Below are positions 8,670 through 61,655 of a DNA stretch of 64,000 bases, one piece after another. The notes beneath the pieces were generated by a model that was given only the letters and a program-made list of their open reading frames with translations, had not been told where the DNA came from and did not search any database. The stretch's first letter is position 1, and every line of letters starts with the position of its first letter. The position numbers and the translations under genes are program-made. Source of the DNA: Phycisphaeraceae bacterium (GTDB lineage Bacteria > Planctomycetota > Phycisphaerae > Phycisphaerales > SM1A02); the NCBI GenBank assembly GCA_015709595.1, contig CP054178.1, positions 1,553,205 to 1,617,204 on the forward strand, read 5' to 3'.

Positions 8670-9674
8670 TCACGCCGCCCGGGGAACGAGGTTGTCGAGG
8701 AACATCGCAGCACATCGGTCCCACGAACACTCCAGCGCCTGGGCGCGGCAGTCGCGTGGATCGAGCAGGAGGGCCTGCATGGCGGCGATGGCGATGTCCT
8801 CGTGCAGCACGCCGGTCACCCCGGGACGCACCACGTCGATGGGGCCGGTCACGGGGTACGCCGCCACCGGCAGGCCGCACGCCATGGCTTCGAGCATGAC
8901 CACGCCGAAGGTGTCGGTGCGCGACGGGAAGACGAAGACATCACCCGCGGCCATGTGACGGGCCAGATCGTCGCCGGTCTGGAAGCCGGTGAAGACGACA
9001 TGAGGATGGCGCGGCCGGAGTGAGGCCATGGCCGGACCGTCGCCGATGACGACCTTCGTGCCGGGCAGATCGGCGTGCAGGAAGGCCTCGATGTTCTTCT
9101 CCCGCGCCACGCGACCGCAGAAGAGAAAGATGGGGCGCGGGCGGTGGTAGAGGTTCTTCTCCGCGGCAGGTCGGAAGCGCTCGGTGTCCACGCCTCGCGT
9201 CCAGACCACCGCGTTGGTGAAGCCGCGGCTCCGCAACTCGCGCTGCACGCTGGGCGTGGGCACCAGCATGCGGGTCGCGGCGTTGTGGAACCGCCGCAGC
9301 ACCGCGTACGACCAGCGCGTCGGGATGCGGAAATACTGCCGCCCGTACTGGGCGTACTGCGTGTGGTAGGACGTGGTGAAGCGCCAGCGCCGCCTCAGAC
9401 AGAACCGACGGGCGGCGAAGCCCAGCGTGCCTTCCGTGGCGATGTGGATGGCGTCGGGAGCGAAATCGGTCAGTTGCTGCTTGAGACGTCGCGCCGGTGC
9501 AATCGCCAGGCGGATCTCGGGATACCTGGGCAGCGGAAAGGTCCGAAACTGACCCGGATGAACAATGAGCAGTTCGTGACCCTGTTGCCGGAGAAGGGTC
9601 GTCACCTGCTCCAGCGTGGTGACGACGCCGTTGATCTGGGGTTTCCACGCATCGGTGATGAGGGCGATTCGCAT
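8670..9674 (-). CDS. Glycosyltransferase, GT4/GT1 family
   Basis: MRIALITDAWKPQINGVVTTL... N-terminus and a C-terminal GDVFVFPSRTDTFGVVMLEAMACGLPVAA (E-x7-E type motif). Confidence 0.8.
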   Translation of the reverse strand: MRIALITDAWKPQINGVVTTLEQVTTLLRQQGHELLIVHPGQFRTFPLPRYPEIRLAIAPARRLKQQLTDFAPDAIHIATEGTLGFAARRFCLRRRWRFTTSYHTQYAQYGRQYFRIPTRWSYAVLRRFHNAATRMLVPTPSVQRELRSRGFTNAVVWTRGVDTERFRPAAEKNLYHRPRPIFLFCGRVAREKNIEAFLHADLPGTKVVIGDGPAMASLRPRHPHVVFTGFQTGDDLARHMAAGDVFVFPSRTDTFGVVMLEAMACGLPVAAYPVTGPIDVVRPGVTGVLHEDIAIAAMQALLLDPRDCRAQALECSWDRCAAMFLDNLVPRAA

Positions 9675-9793
9675 GGGGGCTCCGGGTGGTCAGGCGGGTT
9701 TCTCCGCCATGGATCATGATCGGGGGCTGTGACGGGTCGGTTCGGGCTTCATGGGCGCGGCGTTGGGACTGTGAAAAAAGTTGATGTCGGGGC

Positions 9794-9821
9794 TTGACAG
9801 GTCCGGCGAGTATGTTAGGAT
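9794..9821 (+). promoter_or_regulatory. Candidate sigma70-type promoter TTGACA-N16-TAGGAT
   Basis: Perfect -35 hexamer at 9794-9799 and a 4/6 -10 match at 9816-9821, in an AT-richer divergent intergenic region. GGAG lies 9 nt before the ATG at 9847. Confidence 0.3.
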
Positions 9822-9846
9822 ACACTAACTCATACGGAGAACCACC

Positions 9847-10542
9847 ATGCGACTTTCAACCGAGCACGGCCAGATGATGCGGATGTCAGCGATCGACCTG
9901 GGCGCCCCGATCGGCGGCGGCGTCGGGGGGCAGGCCCTTCGGGCGGACCAGTCGGGGCTGGAGGCGTCCTTCGCCTTGCTGGAGGAGGTGACGGCGGGCC
10001 GGGCCGGCAATCCGGAGGCCGGGAATCCGGGGGCGGATGGCGGGCTGGATATCCGCGGGGCGGGTCACGGCATGCTCAACGCGGGTCGCGTGGTGTCGCG
10101 CTCGCGCATCGCCTGGCGACACGTCGTCGTCAAGGCGCTGTCGAAGCTGCCGGGCACACGATTCAAGAGCGCACTGACCCGGCGGCTCCTGGGGGTGCGC
10201 ATGGGGCGCGATGTGGGTTTGGCCTACGGCGTGTTCCTTGACCCGTACGACCCGTCGATGATCTCGTTCGGCGACAACGTGCTGGTGGGGTTCGACAGCG
10301 CCATCTTCGTCCACATGTTCACCCTCACCCGTCAGCGCCTCCGCCCGGTGACCATCGGCAGCAACGTGATGATCGGGGCGAAGTGCCTCATCGCCCCCGG
10401 CGTGACCATCGGCGACGGGGCCTCCATCGCCCCCGGCACGGTGGTGTCGCGCGATGTGCCCGCCGGCGCCATGGGGATGGGCAACCCGATGGTCATCCGC
10501 CGCCGAGGAGAGCGAGGTCAGTCCACCGATGAGCACGGATGA
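9847..10542 (+). CDS. Left-handed beta-helix (hexapeptide repeat) acyltransferase
   Basis: C-terminal half IGSNVMIGAKCLIAPGVTIGDGASIAPGTVVSRDVPAGAMGMGNP is hexapeptide-repeat like. The true start may be internal. Confidence 0.65.
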   Translation: MRLSTEHGQMMRMSAIDLGAPIGGGVGGQALRADQSGLEASFALLEEVTAGRAGNPEAGNPGADGGLDIRGAGHGMLNAGRVVSRSRIAWRHVVVKALSKLPGTRFKSALTRRLLGVRMGRDVGLAYGVFLDPYDPSMISFGDNVLVGFDSAIFVHMFTLTRQRLRPVTIGSNVMIGAKCLIAPGVTIGDGASIAPGTVVSRDVPAGAMGMGNPMVIRRRGERGQSTDEHG

Positions 10543-10727
10543 CGGGGGGAAGGAGACAGGAGAGAGGGGACGGAATCCGGTGGATCGGCTTGCCGGACGA
10601 GTTCATGGCTCGAAGCCCGCCGCGACGATTCTCAGCGCCCAGACACGACAGCGGTGGAGTTCGAAGCATCGGTCCACCAGGTCGGGATTCCCGGACCCAG
10701 CACCCGGTACCCGGTACCCGCGACACC

Positions 10728-14044: not shown

Positions 14045-15187
14045 TCACTTCCCTCCGCTCCAACGGTAGCGGGAGAGCGTGGTTCCCGCCATGGAACTGT
14101 TGGCCGCGATGATCTGGCGCAGCGTCTGCTCGTTGAGTTCCGCCGGGTGGCCCTGCCAGCGGACGACCCAGTCGGCGCTGAGGACGAGGGCGTGCGGCCA
14201 GGCGTTGCCGTTCACGGCCTTCATGGTGCGGGTGGCGGGGTCGCTGGCGACGCTGAACTTGATCGACGCCGGGGCGATGTTGTACTTCGTCAGCCCGTCG
14301 CGGAAGGCCTGCGGCGTCTCGTTGGTGATGGCGATGATCTCCAGTGAGCCGCGGAATTTCTCCTGCAACTGGCTCATGTGCGGGAAGGACGCGCGGCAGG
14401 GGGGGCACCACGTGGCCGAGAAGTCGATGATCACCACCTTGCCCGTGAGGTCTGGTTGCGCGCTCACCCACGTCTCGGCGAACAGGGCTGGTCCCTTCTT
14501 GCCCTGGACGTTGGCGGCGCTCAGTCGCCCAGTGTTGTGAGGGGGCCACTCGATGTCGGACGTGTCCTTCAACTCCGGCGCCGGGCGCGGCTCGCCCTTC
14601 TTCTCCGGGTCGAATGCTTCATCAATCAACCCCTTCACCGCCTCGCGCAGGCCGTTGGGGTTCAGCCCGGCGTAACGGATGATGCCATGCCTGTCGATCA
14701 CCACGTTGGCGGGCTTCCGGAAGAAACCGAACTCGTCGCAGAACTTGCCCTCGCGGTCGAGGATGATCGGCATGGTCATTTCGCGCTGCTTGAGGAACTT
14801 CTCCGCGGCATCCGCGCCGTCAGGCGTATGCAGCCCGATGACCACCACCTGCTCGCCGAAGGGTTTGAGCACGTTCTCCGCCCGCTCGATGGCGGCTCGG
14901 CCGGGGCTGTCCTTCGTCGTCCACGACTGCACCACGACCACCTTGCCTCGAAGGCCTTCCCACGACAGGGGCTTGTCGGTTTCCTTCCACTCCAGCCCGG
15001 TGGGCATCTCAGGCGCGGCGTAGCCGATGTTTTCATCGAGCAGACTCCGATCCAGATTGTCCATTTTCTCCAGCCACCGCGGATTCACTTCGGACTTCTT
15101 GTCGTCCTGCGCGAACGGCGCCGCGGCCAGACAAGACGCGACCAGTGCGGCGGGCAGCAGCGACAGAACCGGGATTCGTGAGGTCAT
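14045..15187 (-). CDS. Secreted TlpA/redoxin-like thiol:disulfide oxidoreductase (tandem thioredoxin folds)
   Basis: Signal peptide MTSRIPVLSLLPAALVASCLAAAP. The second domain has DFSATWCPPCRASFPHM (CxxC); the first domain lacks the cysteines. Confidence 0.8.
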   Translation of the reverse strand: MTSRIPVLSLLPAALVASCLAAAPFAQDDKKSEVNPRWLEKMDNLDRSLLDENIGYAAPEMPTGLEWKETDKPLSWEGLRGKVVVVQSWTTKDSPGRAAIERAENVLKPFGEQVVVIGLHTPDGADAAEKFLKQREMTMPIILDREGKFCDEFGFFRKPANVVIDRHGIIRYAGLNPNGLREAVKGLIDEAFDPEKKGEPRPAPELKDTSDIEWPPHNTGRLSAANVQGKKGPALFAETWVSAQPDLTGKVVIIDFSATWCPPCRASFPHMSQLQEKFRGSLEIIAITNETPQAFRDGLTKYNIAPASIKFSVASDPATRTMKAVNGNAWPHALVLSADWVVRWQGHPAELNEQTLRQIIAANSSMAGTTLSRYRWSGGK

Positions 15188-15449
15188 GGAGTGAGTTCCC
15201 GTGGTGAGCAGCGGGGAATGAAAGGAACGAAGTGGTGGGGGAGTGGAGGACGCGAGGGCGTGGGCGCGAACACGCGGAACCGGGAGACGCGGATCGAATC
15301 GAGCAGCCGGACGGAGCGAACAAGACGATCAAAGTCCCAAACGGATGAGAACAGAGGCCGGGTGACTCGGTGATCCGCGTCTCCTGATCCCGCGCGGTTG
15401 CCGCCATGAATGCGAACAGGCGGGGCGTGCGGCAGGCAAACCATTGTGA

Positions 15450-17261
<1,812 letters not shown>

Positions 17262-17285
17262 GAAAACGCCGCATCGCAACGACTG

Positions 17286-17323
17286 CAAGGCCCGCGTCCA
17301 CGGACGCGGGCCTTGTGTTTCTT
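17286..17323 (+). terminator. Rho-independent terminator after atpD
   Basis: 13-bp perfect stem CAAGGCCCGCGTC / GACGCGGGCCTTG with a 4-nt loop, followed by TGTTTCTT. Confidence 0.7.
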
Positions 17324-17435
17324 CGGAACGGTTGACGGGGCCATGCTCCGACTCGTGCTTGATCGTGATGATTGAACTTCGAAGTATCCCCGTCACCGCG
17401 CGCCGATGCTGCATGAGTTTCATGACGGGCGCCCA

Positions 17436-18392
17436 TCACCGAACCAGGTTCGCGTAGTAATCCACCTGGGCGGGACGGGTCCAGTAGTCGCTGTGATGGT
17501 GCGCGTGCAGGTCGGGGTTCAGAATGGTCGTGGAGCGCGGGCTGAAGTCGTGCAGCTGGAACGAGAAGCTGTTGCCGGGCGCGGGCAGGATCTCGGCCAC
17601 GCGGCGGGTCATCGACTTGAGCGGGTCCATCGACTCCGGGCCGGAGAAGCCCAGCGCCCGGTCCATCTCGCTGATGAGGAACGCCGAGCCCAGCACCTCA
17701 TCGCCGCGCGACGCCACCATGTGCAGCGACCCCATGCCGAACGGCGCATCGGGAAAGTGGTATTCGTCCTGACGATCCGGTCGCTCGAACACGTCGTTCT
17801 CCACCGCCGGAGCCAGCAGCACGACGTTGTCGAATCGCGTGACGGTGCGGCGGCTGTAGCGCCGTTCGCCCAGAATGGCCGCCGCCCGAAGCCCCACGTG
17901 CGCCCCGAGCGAATGGGTGAACAGCGTCACGCGCGTCGCTCCGTGCGTTTCGACCGCGTCGCGCACCAGCCGGTACAGGGCCACGCCCGCTTCCTGCGCG
18001 AATCTCTGCCCGTCGCTGAACCACAGCGGGCCCACGTCGCCCGGCCAGGTGAAGGTGAGGTAGGCGTAGTCGTCCAGGTTGTGCCCGTCCGCCTGGAGCG
18101 ACGCCTGCAGCTTGCCGAAGAAGTCCGCCCCCGAGCCGAGCGACTCCCGCTCCGTCACGTTGTATCCGTGGACGAAGAGAACCACGTGTTTGCCGGCGGC
18201 ATGGCCGAGGTGGCGTGATCCCGCGAAGCGAGGCACGGCATGAATGGCGAAATCCGGCTGCGACAGCGAGCGCGAGCCCTGCGGACCCCGCGCCCCGGCG
18301 ATGATCATGGGTCTGGGCAGCCCGCTCGAGGCGGCGTCGGCCTTCTGGTCGGATGGCATGACGGTGGGATTGCGGCGTTTGGCGGCGCCCAT
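17436..18392 (-). CDS. Alpha/beta hydrolase, DUF900-like
   Basis: VVLFVHGYNV...TLFTHSLGAHV (GxSxG-like nucleophile elbow). Start placed at MGAAKRR with AAGGAG 6 nt upstream. Confidence 0.55.
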   Translation of the reverse strand: MGAAKRRNPTVMPSDQKADAASSGLPRPMIIAGARGPQGSRSLSQPDFAIHAVPRFAGSRHLGHAAGKHVVLFVHGYNVTERESLGSGADFFGKLQASLQADGHNLDDYAYLTFTWPGDVGPLWFSDGQRFAQEAGVALYRLVRDAVETHGATRVTLFTHSLGAHVGLRAAAILGERRYSRRTVTRFDNVVLLAPAVENDVFERPDRQDEYHFPDAPFGMGSLHMVASRGDEVLGSAFLISEMDRALGFSGPESMDPLKSMTRRVAEILPAPGNSFSFQLHDFSPRSTTILNPDLHAHHHSDYWTRPAQVDYYANLVR

Positions 18393-18589
18393 GAGATGCT
18401 CCTTGTCGGTTCGGGTGCGGACGGGTGGGGGGACGGGACGACGGTCTCCCCTCCATAGAGGCGTACGCCGACCCGTCGATGTGACAGGAACATGCGAATT
18501 TTTTGAGACATGTCGCCGAGCCGCGGAGATCATCGCCCGGCGGAACGCCCGCCGCGAGGGGGCCTTCGGGGTACACTCACCCTCGCACC

Positions 18590-56287: not shown

Positions 56288-56839
56288 TCAACCGATGGGA
56301 AACGTCCGCACCTCCACGTGCTCCGCGCCGTCGGGCCTGAGCACGCTGCGCATGAGGCGCACCTGGTCCACGTGGAACGGCTCGATGGCGCGGCCCGGGC
56401 CGACGTCGCTCAACCGCGATGGCGAACGGAAGCGGCAGAGCGTGAAGTGGGGCAGGAATCGTTCCACGTCACGGTCGCGCACGTTGCGGGCCAGCCGGTG
56501 GGCCAGCCGGCGGTGAATCTCCATCAGGTCGGGCGGCGCGTCCGTCTCGCAGGCGATCAGCCGAGCCGGACCCTGCTGGGGCAGGGCGATCAGCCGCCGC
56601 GGCGCGAGCGTGAAGGGCTTGAGCCCCGCCACGCTGCGTTCGATGGATTCCAGCACGCTGTCCATCTCCGCCGCGGGCGTGTCGCCGAGAAACAGCGCCG
56701 TCAGGTGAATCTGCTCCATCGGCGTCTCGCGGTGAGCCGGCAGCGTGAGCTTGCGCAGGGCGTTGCGCATCGAGCGGGCCGCGTCGGGAGGCGGGTAGAC
56801 CGCCACGAACAGACGCTGGTTGGCGATGGGACGCGACAT
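56288..56839 (-). CDS. thpR: RNA 2',3'-cyclic phosphodiesterase (2H family, ThpR/LigT)
   Basis: Two HxT motifs, IHLTALFLG and PHFTLCRF, at the expected spacing. Start at MSRPIANQRLFVAV. Confidence 0.75.
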   Translation of the reverse strand: MSRPIANQRLFVAVYPPPDAARSMRNALRKLTLPAHRETPMEQIHLTALFLGDTPAAEMDSVLESIERSVAGLKPFTLAPRRLIALPQQGPARLIACETDAPPDLMEIHRRLAHRLARNVRDRDVERFLPHFTLCRFRSPSRLSDVGPGRAIEPFHVDQVRLMRSVLRPDGAEHVEVRTFPIG

Positions 56840-56847
56840 GGTGGACG

Positions 56848-58819
<1,972 letters not shown>

Positions 58820-58914
58820 GCGACATGTGCGATGGGTGCTATCGCGAGACGCTATGATCGGTGGCTCTCAGCGGTTGAACAATCGGCGGACTTCTAGAAG
58901 CGGCTGGAATCACG

Positions 58915-60075
58915 ATGGACAACGGGTCGTCGAAACCATCGCGGATCGGGCGCCTGGTGCTCGAGAACTGGCGAAATTTCCGCCAGGTTGACGCTCAGTT
59001 GCAGCGGCGCACGTTTCTCGTTGGTCCGAACGCGTCGGGGAAGTCGAATCTGCTCGACGCGTTGCGGTTTCTACGACACCTCGTTCGCGTCGGCGGCGGG
59101 TTTCAGGATGCACTGGCGAGTCGCGGTGGCGTATCGAGACTTCGTTGCCTGGCGGCTCGCCGGCACCCGGATATCCGTATTCACGTGGGCATTCTCGGCG
59201 ACGACGGCACCGAAGCGTGGACCTACGAGTTGGCCTTCGGACAGGACAATTTGCGACGGGGCAAGATCCAGCGGGAGCGCATTACACGGCATGGGACGGT
59301 GATTCTCGATCGCCCCGACAGCGATGATCAGGCCGATCCGGAGCGCCTGACGCAAACCCGCATCGAACAGGTGCAGGCCAATCAGGAGTTTCGTGAGATC
59401 GCCGCGTTCTTCGGTTCCATTCAATACCGGCATCTTGTGCCTCAACTGGTGCGCGAGCCGGACCGCTCCGTCGGACGGCGGGATGATCCGTTCGGCGGTG
59501 ATTTCCTCGAGCAGATCGCAGCAACAAGTTCGAAAACGCGAGATTCCCGACTTCGCCGTATCGGACAGGCGCTACGCATCGCGGTTCCTCAACTCAAGGA
59601 ACTCGAACTGACGCGCGACTCACGGGGTGTGCCACACCTCCGCGGCAAGTACGAACACTGGAGGCCGAAGGGCTCCTGGCAGTTCGAGGAGGATTTCTCA
59701 GATGGGACGCTCCGCCTGCTCGGGCTTCTGTGGTCGATTCTCGACAGAAGCGGCCCGCTGCTCTTGGAGGAACCTGAACTGTCCCTACACTCCGGCATCG
59801 TTCGACTGTTGCCACAGTTGTTCGCACGAGTGCAGAAACGCTCCGGTCGCCAAATCGTCATCAGCACACATTCACCTGAGCTGTTTCAGGACAGTGGCGT
59901 CGGACTCGATGAAGTGCTGCTGCTCACACCGAGCTCAGAAGGCACACAGGTTCGAAACGCGACGGAAGTTCGTGACATTGGTGAACTGCTAGCCGGTGGT
60001 GTTTCCCTGGCCGATGCCATCATGCCCCATACGAGGCCGCGTGGGGTCGAGCAACTGACTCTCTGGGATGGCTGA
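58915..60075 (+). CDS. ABC/SMC-like AAA ATPase (AAA_15/AAA_21 type, OLD/AriA/AbiLi-like)
   Basis: Walker A GPNASGKS (aa 37-44), signature-like FSDGTLRLL (aa 261-269), Walker B LLLEEPE (aa 282-288), H-loop STHS (aa 317-320). Confidence 0.8.
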   Translation: MDNGSSKPSRIGRLVLENWRNFRQVDAQLQRRTFLVGPNASGKSNLLDALRFLRHLVRVGGGFQDALASRGGVSRLRCLAARRHPDIRIHVGILGDDGTEAWTYELAFGQDNLRRGKIQRERITRHGTVILDRPDSDDQADPERLTQTRIEQVQANQEFREIAAFFGSIQYRHLVPQLVREPDRSVGRRDDPFGGDFLEQIAATSSKTRDSRLRRIGQALRIAVPQLKELELTRDSRGVPHLRGKYEHWRPKGSWQFEEDFSDGTLRLLGLLWSILDRSGPLLLEEPELSLHSGIVRLLPQLFARVQKRSGRQIVISTHSPELFQDSGVGLDEVLLLTPSSEGTQVRNATEVRDIGELLAGGVSLADAIMPHTRPRGVEQLTLWDG

Positions 60076-60703
60076 CCGATCCAGCCCCATCCCGACCATC
60101 TCCATCGTCGTCGAAGGCGACGCCGACGAGGCCGTGGCGCGTCGGCTTGTGGAGCACGTCGGGGGCATGTCGGGCACCGTGTACGGTCGATCCGGCAAGG
60201 CGAAGGTCCTCTCATCCGTGCATGGGTACACCAATGCTGCCCAACGCAGTCCCTGGTTTGTGCTGATCGACCTTGATCGCGATGCGGAGTGTGCACCAAC
60301 CCTTCGAGCCGCCTGTCTGCCGCGGGTCTCGAAGTGGCTGTGTTTCCGGATTGCCGTTCGAGAGATCGAAAGTTGGCTTCTGGCGGATCGCCAGTCGCTG
60401 GCACGATTCCTTGGGGTTCGAGAGCGTGCCATACCGCGCGATCCAGACAACGACCCTGATCCAAAGGCGACCGTCGTGAACCTGGCCCGTCAATCGTCGC
60501 ATCGGGGGATACGGGAAGACCTCGTGCCAACCGAGCGATCGGGTCGCCGCGTCGGCATCGCCTACACCTCCCGCATGATTGAGTTTGCCCGACAGCATTG
60601 GGACATCGAAAGGGCGACGGCAAGCTCACCGAGTCTCGAGTCGGCCGTCGCCTGTCTCGCAGACCTGGTCAAGCGGTATGCTGCCGAAGGGCACCTGTCC
60701 TGA
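60068..60703 (+). CDS. Toprim-like, DUF4276-type protein, translationally coupled to the upstream ATPase
   Basis: VVEGDADE (aa 14-21), LIDLDRD (aa 66-72) and REIESWLLAD (aa 98-107). The ATG at 60068 overlaps the ATPase stop (60073-60075). Confidence 0.65.
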   Translation: MADRSSPIPTISIVVEGDADEAVARRLVEHVGGMSGTVYGRSGKAKVLSSVHGYTNAAQRSPWFVLIDLDRDAECAPTLRAACLPRVSKWLCFRIAVREIESWLLADRQSLARFLGVRERAIPRDPDNDPDPKATVVNLARQSSHRGIREDLVPTERSGRRVGIAYTSRMIEFARQHWDIERATASSPSLESAVACLADLVKRYAAEGHLS

Positions 60704-60869
60704 GTCATCCGGAGCGCACTTCCTGCGCCCCGCTCATCCCGCACAACGATACCACACCGCCCCCCCAACCCTTCAGTCCCCCCCCGTTTGCGCCGATGAA
60801 CCAGACGATGGCCGGGCCCCGTCCGCCCGCGCCCTCGGATGGATCAGAACGGACCGGAGGCGGGTTGCG

Positions 60870-61655
60870 ATGGATAAATCCAGTCTCATCGGCGTCATCG
60901 TCGGCCTCGCCTGCATGCTGGGCGTGGGTTGGCTCGCCTCGCATGGCAACTGGCTCATGTTCTGGTCGGAGAAGGGCGTCATCGCCGTGTTCGGCGGCAC
61001 CATCAGCGTCATCTTCATCGCCATGCCCATGGCGAAGATCAAGTGCGTGCCCGGCTACATCAAGCGCTTCATGTTCCAGAAGGGCCGCGAGCCGATCGAG
61101 GTGGTCCAGACCATGTCCTCGCTGGGCGAAAAGGCCCGGCGTGACGGCATCCTGGCCCTCGAAGCCGAGATCGAGAAACTGCAGGAGACCGATCCCTTCC
61201 TCGCCTCCGGCCTGCGCATGGCGGTGGACGGCGTCGATCCCGACGGCATCGAGGCCACCCTGCGCATGGAGATCATGGCCATGCAGGAGCGGCACAAGGC
61301 CGGCAAGAAGTTCTTCGACCTCGTCAAGCTCTACGCGCCCGGCTGGGGACTCGTGGCCACGCTCATCGGCCAGATCGGCATGTTCGGACACCTGGGAGGC
61401 GACATCGACGTGCTGGGCCACATGCTGGCGGTCGCCGTCGTCGCGACCATGTACGGCACCGTGCTGGCCAACGCCGTCGCGGGGCCGATCGGCGACAAAC
61501 TCGCGATCCGCTCGGCGGAGGAAATCCTCAATCGCGAGATGATGCTGCAGGGAATCCTCTCCATCCAGGCGGGCGACAACCCGCGCGTCACCCTCGACCG
61601 CATGACCGCGTTCATTCCGCGCAACGATCGGGCGAAACTCAAACTCGCGGCGTGA
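60870..61655 (+). CDS. motA: Flagellar stator protein MotA/PomA
   Basis: Four TM helices, a cytoplasmic loop with GILALE, and a C-terminal plug region YGTVLANAVAGPIGDKL. Start at MDKSSLIGVIVG. Confidence 0.85.
   Translation: MDKSSLIGVIVGLACMLGVGWLASHGNWLMFWSEKGVIAVFGGTISVIFIAMPMAKIKCVPGYIKRFMFQKGREPIEVVQTMSSLGEKARRDGILALEAEIEKLQETDPFLASGLRMAVDGVDPDGIEATLRMEIMAMQERHKAGKKFFDLVKLYAPGWGLVATLIGQIGMFGHLGGDIDVLGHMLAVAVVATMYGTVLANAVAGPIGDKLAIRSAEEILNREMMLQGILSIQAGDNPRVTLDRMTAFIPRNDRAKLKLAA

Follow-up and report, generated by a model that had tools for sequence, protein, structure and literature searches.

ABC ATPases linked to TOPRIM proteins have been catalogued as OLD-ABC dyads among conflict modules, and are interpreted as 'back-up suicidal effectors' that serve BREX and the related Hma systems (PMC12839542). 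HEC-01, or 'Hma-embedded candidate 01', is a pairing of an ABC ATPase with a TOPRIM protein, the metal site of which has been likened to that of the OLD nuclease from B. pseudomallei (BpOLD) (Payne et al. bioRxiv 10.1101/2024.01.29.577857). Mad3-Mad4 of MADS is listed among the ABC plus TOPRIM systems and joins an ATPase to a DUF4276 protein; both DUF4276 and Mad4 have been placed in the Toprim superfamily, with a conserved Glu and DxD motif, and RloB is another family recently so assigned. In PARIS, a hexamer of AriA sequesters AriB until ATP-dependent detection of a trigger frees an AriB dimer that cleaves tRNA-Lys, and in P2 OLD a tetramer is destabilised, the Toprim site opens and tRNA is cleaved. 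Here we describe two overlapping open reading frames (ORFs), ORF1 and ORF2, that almost certainly constitute a HEC-01-type pair of an ABC ATPase and a DUF4276 protein. They lie between the enolase gene (eno) and motA in a stretch of 64,000 nucleotides (nt) from a Phycisphaeraceae metagenome-assembled genome (contig CP054178.1, positions 1,553,205 to 1,617,204), which we call the window and to which all positions refer unless another contig is named.

The assignment rests on matches to both components of the system. ORF1 matches the HEC-01A model of PADLOC, PDLC04180 (E=4.5e-156, 517.8 bits; residues 10-382 on profile positions 2-379 of 382), and ORF2 (locus tag HRU76_06770) matches the HEC-01B model, PDLC04194 (E=1e-64, 216 bits; residues 11-204 on profile positions 6-201 of 204). 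The two genes are also adjacent and co-directional, so that every feature by which HEC-01 is defined at the sequence level was found. The pair is real and probably functional, and it is not new: it falls within HEC-01, a candidate anti-phage system that has been catalogued before. The initial annotation, which was made from the DNA letters and had proposed an uncharacterised defence module, had itself allowed that a clean assignment to a known type would leave the pair 'real but not novel', and this outcome largely applies. Its further statement, that the pairing of such an ATPase with DUF4276 had no experimentally described function, is out of date in view of the phage tests of HEC-01, Mad3-Mad4 of MADS and the catalogued OLD-ABC dyads.

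ORF1 is an ABC ATPase of the SMC/Rad50/OLD class, as had been proposed. It scores 132.5 bits against Pfam AAA_21 (threshold 27) and 56 bits against AAA_15 (threshold 32.1), and all of the motifs that had been quoted for it, like those quoted for ORF2, are present at the residues given for them (Table 1). The Q-loop residue, Q147, is invariant in the same alignment as the other ORF1 motifs. The AlphaFold2 (AF2) model of the protein has a predicted local distance difference test score (pLDDT) of 82 and a predicted template modelling score (pTM) of 0.84, and a Foldseek search with it against the PDB returned 409 matches at E<=1e-3, the best of them to PtuA (Septu; retron Eco7/Ec78/Ec83), followed by Rad50 and the heads of SMC proteins (E 6e-13 to 1e-11, probability 1.0). 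At the sequence level, matches to PDB structures were local only, to GajA, an OLD nuclease, AriA and PtuA, and NCBIfam gave sub-threshold matches only, to MAD3, RecF and Rad50/SMC models. Among other PADLOC models, ORF1 matches AbiLi (3e-24) and the 'AriA' model PDLC02980 (residues 33-323 on profile positions 2-302 of 304); the latter match is generic, because it covers the same residues and profile span as Pfam AAA_21. In PHROGs, ORF1 matches families of unknown function only. ATPases of this kind are numerous, with more than 8,000 matches in a profile search.

The second protein had been proposed to be of the DUF4276 type and Toprim-like. Its own match to Pfam DUF4276 (PF14103), at 19.3 bits (E=1.4e-3), falls short of the gathering threshold (30.2 bits). 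Of 40 relatives, however, 38 match the family (best E 1.8e-9), and in an alignment of the ORF2 family with two canonical DUF4276 proteins the residues E16, G17 and E101 are invariant. Judged by these sequence relationships, ORF2 is a divergent DUF4276 subfamily. Its AF2 model (pLDDT 91.8, pTM 0.88) has two domains, a Toprim-like N-terminal α/β domain (approximately residues 10-105) and an all-helical C-terminal domain (approximately 108-206). The core of the former is predicted to run β1(10-15)-α-β2(34-40)-α-β3(63-68)-α-β4(91-96)-α, with α1 at 18-30. In the classical Toprim layout, which Aravind, Leipe and Koonin reportedly set out in 1998, a Glu follows β1 and a DxD motif stands at the end of β3. 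The motifs and modelled topology of ORF2, with the order of elements read along the sequence, fit that superfamily, and the DUF4276 and Toprim proposal stands to this extent; the fold searches, considered below, did not confirm it. The helical C-terminal half carries the conserved basic residues K133, R141, R149, R160, R169 and R192. The OLD-like_TOPRIM model gives a weak match to ORF2 (residues 13-35, E=0.16), and no match was found in NCBIfam and no family in PHROGs.

The pair looks horizontally acquired, judging from its composition and from the variability of its site. At 0.617, its GC content is at the 4.7th percentile of windows of the same size (window mean 0.668), and the GC content of third codon positions (GC3) comes to 0.669 and 0.693 in the two genes and to 0.82-0.94 in all 11 neighbouring ones; the lower GC that had been suspected for this stretch is thus real, modest overall and striking in GC3. 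In a syntenic relative, L025 (3159-6789), in which MotA is 78% identical, the slot between eno and motA holds a 312-amino-acid (aa) PA14-domain gene and lacks the pair. The order of the surrounding block is kept there (2-Hacid_dh, HU, LigT, a hypothetical gene, eno, the slot, motA, motB), and a downstream 618-aa hypothetical gene is common to L025 and the window, with one extra gene after motB in L025. Accessory genes seem to vary in the eno-motA slot, and the foreign GC3 of the pair, together with the PA14 gene in the same slot of L025, points to its horizontal acquisition into that spot. Insertion scars were not seen: there are no flanking direct or inverted repeats beyond short matches at chance level, and alignment of the spacer downstream of eno with that of L025 gave no clear insertion boundary.

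Once in place, the pair has apparently been kept. The contig L026 carries an orthologue at the same genomic position, in which ORF1 has 86% nucleotide identity and the 95-nt spacer after eno, the ATGGCTGA overlap and the ORF2 start are all the same as in the window. The 168 nt located 5' of ORF1 (the 3' end of eno and the spacer) are 82% identical between the two, with a spacer of equal length. Between these orthologues, the ratio of nonsynonymous to synonymous substitution rates (dN/dS) for ORF1 is 0.08 at a dS of 0.62. Together with the synteny, this indicates that the pair has long been passed down vertically, with purifying selection acting on it and no defence genes beside it. The full-length hidden Markov model (HMM) matches and the dN/dS of ORF1 also establish that these are not chance ORFs of GC-rich DNA.

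The family to which the pair belongs is large. An exhaustive profile search with ORF2 found 2,663 representative clusters (50% identity) at E<=1e-3 and, among the matches listed, the ORF2-like clusters are almost all stand-alone proteins of ~200 aa. The distribution across phyla is patchy, and the family occurs in none of 50,697 phage records and in one of 72,556 plasmid records. The expectation that the two genes would be conserved as neighbours was borne out in the 16 related loci examined, 14 of which include DNA upstream of the ORF2 homologue: an ORF1 homologue is directly upstream in 13 of these 14 informative loci. Where the ATPase frame is uninterrupted (10 loci), the ATPase and DUF4276 genes overlap by up to 4 nt or stand no more than 22 nt apart.

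Intact relatives were also found near defence genes, as had been anticipated. The locus L018 (5387-20606) is an Hma or 'Type-1 BREX-related' locus, with an SNF2 helicase carrying NOV_C, a DUF1156 methylase and a DUF499 ATPase, and it contains three ATPase plus DUF4276 pairs (8853-10606, 14459-16302 and 16684-18458), the first of which belongs to the subfamily of the window. The relative in L019 is situated in an island with PIN, NYN, PhdYeFM, DUF87 and a type IIG restriction-modification gene, and that in L020 is found with a type I restriction-modification system and HipA; the context of L017 is housekeeping, like that of the window. Several other copies are decayed. In two Acidobacteriaceae genomes, L006 (1349-3108) and L008 (6802-8561), the ATPase has a common nonsense codon, Tyr149 to TAA; in L009 (7469-8528), an internal deletion fuses half of the ATPase to the Toprim gene; L010 (8001-8541) has a lone, frameshifted Toprim gene, and L012 (8001-8581) a Toprim gene with two frameshifts. 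These five are from metagenome-assembled genomes, and assembly errors may explain their condition.

The coordinates of the pair, its motifs and its immediate neighbours are collected in Table 1. The ORF boundaries, the 8-nt overlap and the eno and motA flanks given in the initial annotation are all confirmed by the sequence together with public gene calls.

Table 1. Features of the ORF1-ORF2 locus, in window positions; conservation in ORF1 refers to an alignment of 35 homologues (~65% identity).
Feature	Position	Strand	Description
ORF1	58915..60075	+	ATG start, 386 aa; HEC-01A, ABC ATPase of the SMC/Rad50/OLD class
Walker A / P-loop GPNASGKS (G37-S44, K43)	59023..59046	+	G37, P38, N39, A40, G42, K43, S44 invariant; S41 >=90%
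ABC signature-like FSDGTLRLL (F261-L269)	59695..59721	+	F261, S262, D263, T265, L266, R267, L268 invariant; G264 >=90%
Walker B and next residues LLLEEPE (L282-E288)	59758..59778	+	L283, E285, E286, P287, E288 invariant
H-loop STHS (S317-S320)	59863..59874	+	S317, T318, H319 invariant
ORF1/ORF2 overlap ATGGCTGA	60068..60075	+	8 nt, read directly from sequence; ORF1 stop TGA at 60073-60075, ORF2 ATG at 60068, 8 nt inside ORF1; operonic or translationally coupled junction
ORF2	60068..60703	+	ATG start, 211 aa; HEC-01B, divergent DUF4276-family protein
VVEGDADE, Toprim motif-1-like (residues 14-21)	60107..60130	+	E16 (60113-60115) at C-terminal end of β1; E16, G17 >=90% in 40 homologues
D68-L69-D70, DxD-like, in LIDLDRD (66-72)	60269..60277	+	C-terminal end of β3; D68 invariant in 40 homologues
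E101-S-W103, 'E-x-W' motif, in EIESWLLAD (99-107)	60368..60376	+	After β4; E101, W103 >=90% in 40 homologues
Enolase (Enolase_N/C)	57521-58819		Upstream neighbour, from public gene calls on the same genome
Spacer, eno stop to ORF1 start	58820..58914	+	95 nt; presumed expression signals of the pair
MotA_ExbB	60870-61655		Downstream neighbour; then MotB/OmpA

No sigma-70-like promoter or intrinsic terminator was found around the pair, including the spacer between eno and ORF1, and no Rfam family was found at that spacer or around the locus; there is likewise no tRNA gene nearby. The 166-nt spacer between ORF2 and motA (60704-60869) contains long C-runs, CCCCCCCAACCC ... CCCCCCCC, and has neither an Rfam match nor a terminator-like hairpin. 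Approximately 2 kb upstream of the pair, a putative nuclease pair acting on (t)RNA or DNA, is a gene for a LigT or 2',5'-RNA-ligase-like 2H phosphoesterase (56288-56839, minus strand); its proximity looks coincidental, because the LigT gene is also present in L025, which lacks the pair.

The ATPase ORF is skipped in the public gene calls of the same genome (GCA_048500015.1 and three Logan contigs), which instead contain a 120-aa antisense ORF inside it (approximately 59071-59433, minus strand), and the exact ORF1 protein is absent from a collection of 15 billion proteins. The suspicion that ORF1 might be disrupted in these other assemblies was rejected, since their DNA is 100% identical; the missed call is probably caused by the atypical GC3 of the gene (0.67 against ~0.9). 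As the public calls omit the ATPase ORF, defence finders that depend on annotation would miss the system.

We favour the view that the pair acts by itself as a defence or conflict module, broadly along the lines of PARIS and OLD, and consider this fairly likely, the mechanism itself being drawn by analogy. What leads to this view is the family membership, the intact ATPase motifs along with the E / DxD / E set of ORF2, the coupling of the two neighbours, the selection on them and the Hma, restriction-modification and toxin-antitoxin islands in which relatives are found. The pair would then be a horizontally acquired, chromosomally fixed HEC-01-type two-gene conflict system, with HEC-01B as a putative DUF4276 Toprim-like nuclease. 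By analogy with AriA/AriB of PARIS and with P2 OLD, an oligomer of the ATPase might keep the small nuclease inactive and sense infection; a phage-derived trigger, with binding or hydrolysis of ATP, would release or open the Toprim active site. The nuclease, presumably metal-dependent, might cut host or phage nucleic acid, either tRNA, which is the target in PARIS and OLD, or DNA, which is that of Gabija, and through abortive infection the cleavage would keep the phage from propagating. In the C-terminal half of ORF2, the conserved basic residues may form the substrate-binding surface. The specific substrate and trigger proposed here are much less certain than the identification of the pair as a defence or conflict module.

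Several observations weigh against this interpretation. The housekeeping neighbours of the pair include no PADLOC match, which places the locus outside a defence island, and the proposed substrate, trigger, stoichiometry and abortive outcome are taken from analogy throughout. Published phage tests of HEC-01 are in conflict: the homologue of Payne et al. (bioRxiv 10.1101/2024.01.29.577857) gave E. coli no protection from any phage that they used; one HEC-01 cluster from a cold-seep metagenome study reportedly made E. coli B resistant to one or more of the phages T7, T5 and T4, in a report that gives no mechanistic detail; and other surveys continue to list HEC-01 as a candidate awaiting validation. 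The remaining points concern the Toprim nature of ORF2. The second Asp of its DxD-like motif, D70, is Asp in most relatives and Asn in 5 of 40. Foldseek searches of the PDB with the ORF2 model returned nothing at E<=1e-3, generic Rossmann-like folds being found, and the best-placed Toprim protein, RNase M5 (6tg6), came at rank 36 (E=0.79, probability 0.60, template modelling (TM) score 0.41); counting in favour of the interpretation, the top match among viral structures in BFVD, and the one that was meaningful, was to an RloB-like protein, over the full length (E=1.3e-2, probability 0.99, TM 0.43). A profile of 40 ORF2 homologues found no match among PDB sequences at E<=10. When the ORF2 profile was aligned by hhalign with P2 Old and with a small OLD/GajA Toprim alignment, the expected register was obtained, with E16 on the Toprim Glu and D68xD70 on the DCD of Old, at scores that were not significant because the profiles are too shallow (number of effective sequences, Neff, ~2.4). 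The fold searches gave no independent proof of a Toprim fold, and the proposed similarity rests partly on published analyses.

The conflicting phage tests bear on whether the pair acts alone. It might instead be an auxiliary or 'back-up' effector that depends on a larger system of the Hma/BREX-related or restriction-modification kind, in which case the eno-motA copy would be an idle orphan. The family was defined by its embedding in Hma loci (Payne et al. bioRxiv 10.1101/2024.01.29.577857), the relative in L018 is embedded likewise, TOPRIM-linked OLD-ABC dyads have been read in this way for BREX and BREX-related systems (PMC12839542), and the pair that Payne et al. tested in isolation was not protective. 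An orphan without work, however, is hard to reconcile with a copy that has been kept at its locus with intact motifs and under strong purifying selection (dN/dS 0.08, dS 0.62). Other relatives also stand alone in a housekeeping context (L017), and a stand-alone HEC-01 was reported as protective in the cold-seep study, so that we judge dependence on a larger system unlikely. A stand-alone copy under selection argues that the pair works autonomously, and not just when attached to Hma or BREX-like systems.

The decay seen among relatives raises another question, namely whether the pair is a selfish, toxin-antitoxin-like addiction cassette, in which the nuclease is a toxin, the ATPase its restraint and loss of the cassette harmful, with no dedicated role against phages. 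Pfam labels AAA_21 as 'putative AbiEii toxin, Type IV TA system', the insertion is a solitary one among core genes, one phage test was negative, and decay is frequent (L006, L008, L009, L010, L012). Such modules thrive on mobile elements, yet the family is nearly absent from them (0/50,697 phage and 1/72,556 plasmid records), and against a purely selfish role there are also the relatives embedded in defence systems and the one positive phage-protection test; we regard an addiction cassette as rather improbable. A housekeeping pair for DNA repair or maintenance, like RecF (ABC ATPase) and RecR (Toprim), which the combination of an ABC ATPase with Toprim recalls and towards which the N-terminus of ORF1 leans in its weak matches to RecF (33 bits) and Rad50/SMC models and in the resemblance of its model to Rad50 and SMC heads, is scarcely credible given a RecF score of 33 against a cut-off of 172 bits, a foreign codon composition, a syntenic relative (L025) with another gene in place of the pair, and a patchy distribution across phyla with pseudogenised copies and relatives in defence loci.

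The subfamily of the pair could be a mechanistically distinct branch of OLD-like systems, a tentative proposal that we place on the doubtful side. This HEC-01 subfamily is widespread, environmental and chromosomally fixed; it has ~2,600 clusters (50% identity), does not occur in the phage records and is nearly missing from those of plasmids. In it, a compact 386-aa ATPase might gate a minimal 200-aa DUF4276 Toprim protein via the conserved helical C-terminal domain, with a trigger and substrate unlike those of PARIS, OLD and Gabija. Were this true, working out the mechanism would explain the disagreement among the tests of HEC-01 in E. coli. HEC-01 is abundant in environmental metagenomes, and in view of the conflicting tests a well-behaved orthologue could serve for biochemistry.

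Comparison with other known systems separates the pair from most of those that combine similar proteins. Class 1 OLD proteins such as P2 Old, as well as GajA of Gabija, have an ABC ATPase of the same broad family and a Toprim nuclease, and the context of motif 1 is similar (LLVEG.. in OLD/GajA, VVEGD.. in ORF2); in these, however, the two domains are fused in one protein of ~580 aa, and Gabija adds the helicase GajB. Membership in either was rejected, as the window has two separate ORFs and no helicase nearby. In Pfam and PADLOC, ORF2 has no DUF4435, AriB, HNH, RloB or AbiLii match. Septu and the retron PtuA-PtuB systems share an ATPase, the ORF1 model matching PtuA better than any other solved structure (E ~6e-13, probability 1.0), and were rejected because their partner, PtuB, is an HNH nuclease and ORF2 has no HNH match; only the ATPase is structurally PtuA-like. 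RloA/RloB and AbiLi/AbiLii likewise combine an AAA_21-type ATPase with a small partner of the Toprim superfamily; neither RloB nor AbiLii is matched by ORF2 at the sequence level, the structural match to the RloB-like protein is modest (E=1.3e-2), and membership in AbiL was considered and rejected.

MADS resembles the pair in that Mad3, an ABC ATPase, adjoins Mad4, a DUF4276 Toprim protein, and the window proteins match both weakly (mad3 5.1e-18, mad4 2e-3). It was rejected on a score of 68 bits against the MAD3 equivalog cut-off of 420, with no methyltransferase or other mad genes within 10 kb. PARIS, an OLD-like system of class 4, offers the most likely functional analogy, a sensor ATPase and a released nuclease: it too has two genes, for an ABC ATPase and a separate Toprim-type effector, and an AAA_15/AAA_21 signature is common to ORF1 and AriA. 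The partner differs, AriB being a 35-kDa DUF4435 tRNase and ORF2 a DUF4276-type protein of ~200 aa, as does the size of the ATPase (AriA ~464 aa, ORF1 386 aa), and PARIS is often borne by phages or satellites, unlike the family of the window. The initial annotation had kept the pair apart from PARIS, and membership was indeed rejected on the missing DUF4435 and AriB matches.

In HEC-01 itself, the two families are those of ORF1 and ORF2, encoded in that order by neighbouring, co-directional genes; the HMM matches are of full length for both proteins, and a relative of exactly the subfamily of the window, in L018, is embedded in an Hma locus. HEC-01 comprises many subfamilies (at least 10 A models and at least 20 B models were matched), and the homologues tested with phages may not be of the subfamily found here. 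Unlike the Hma-embedded pairs, the copy in the window stands by itself between core genes, and provides a clean, intact and selected example of a stand-alone HEC-01 pair in a Planctomycete, outside any defence island.

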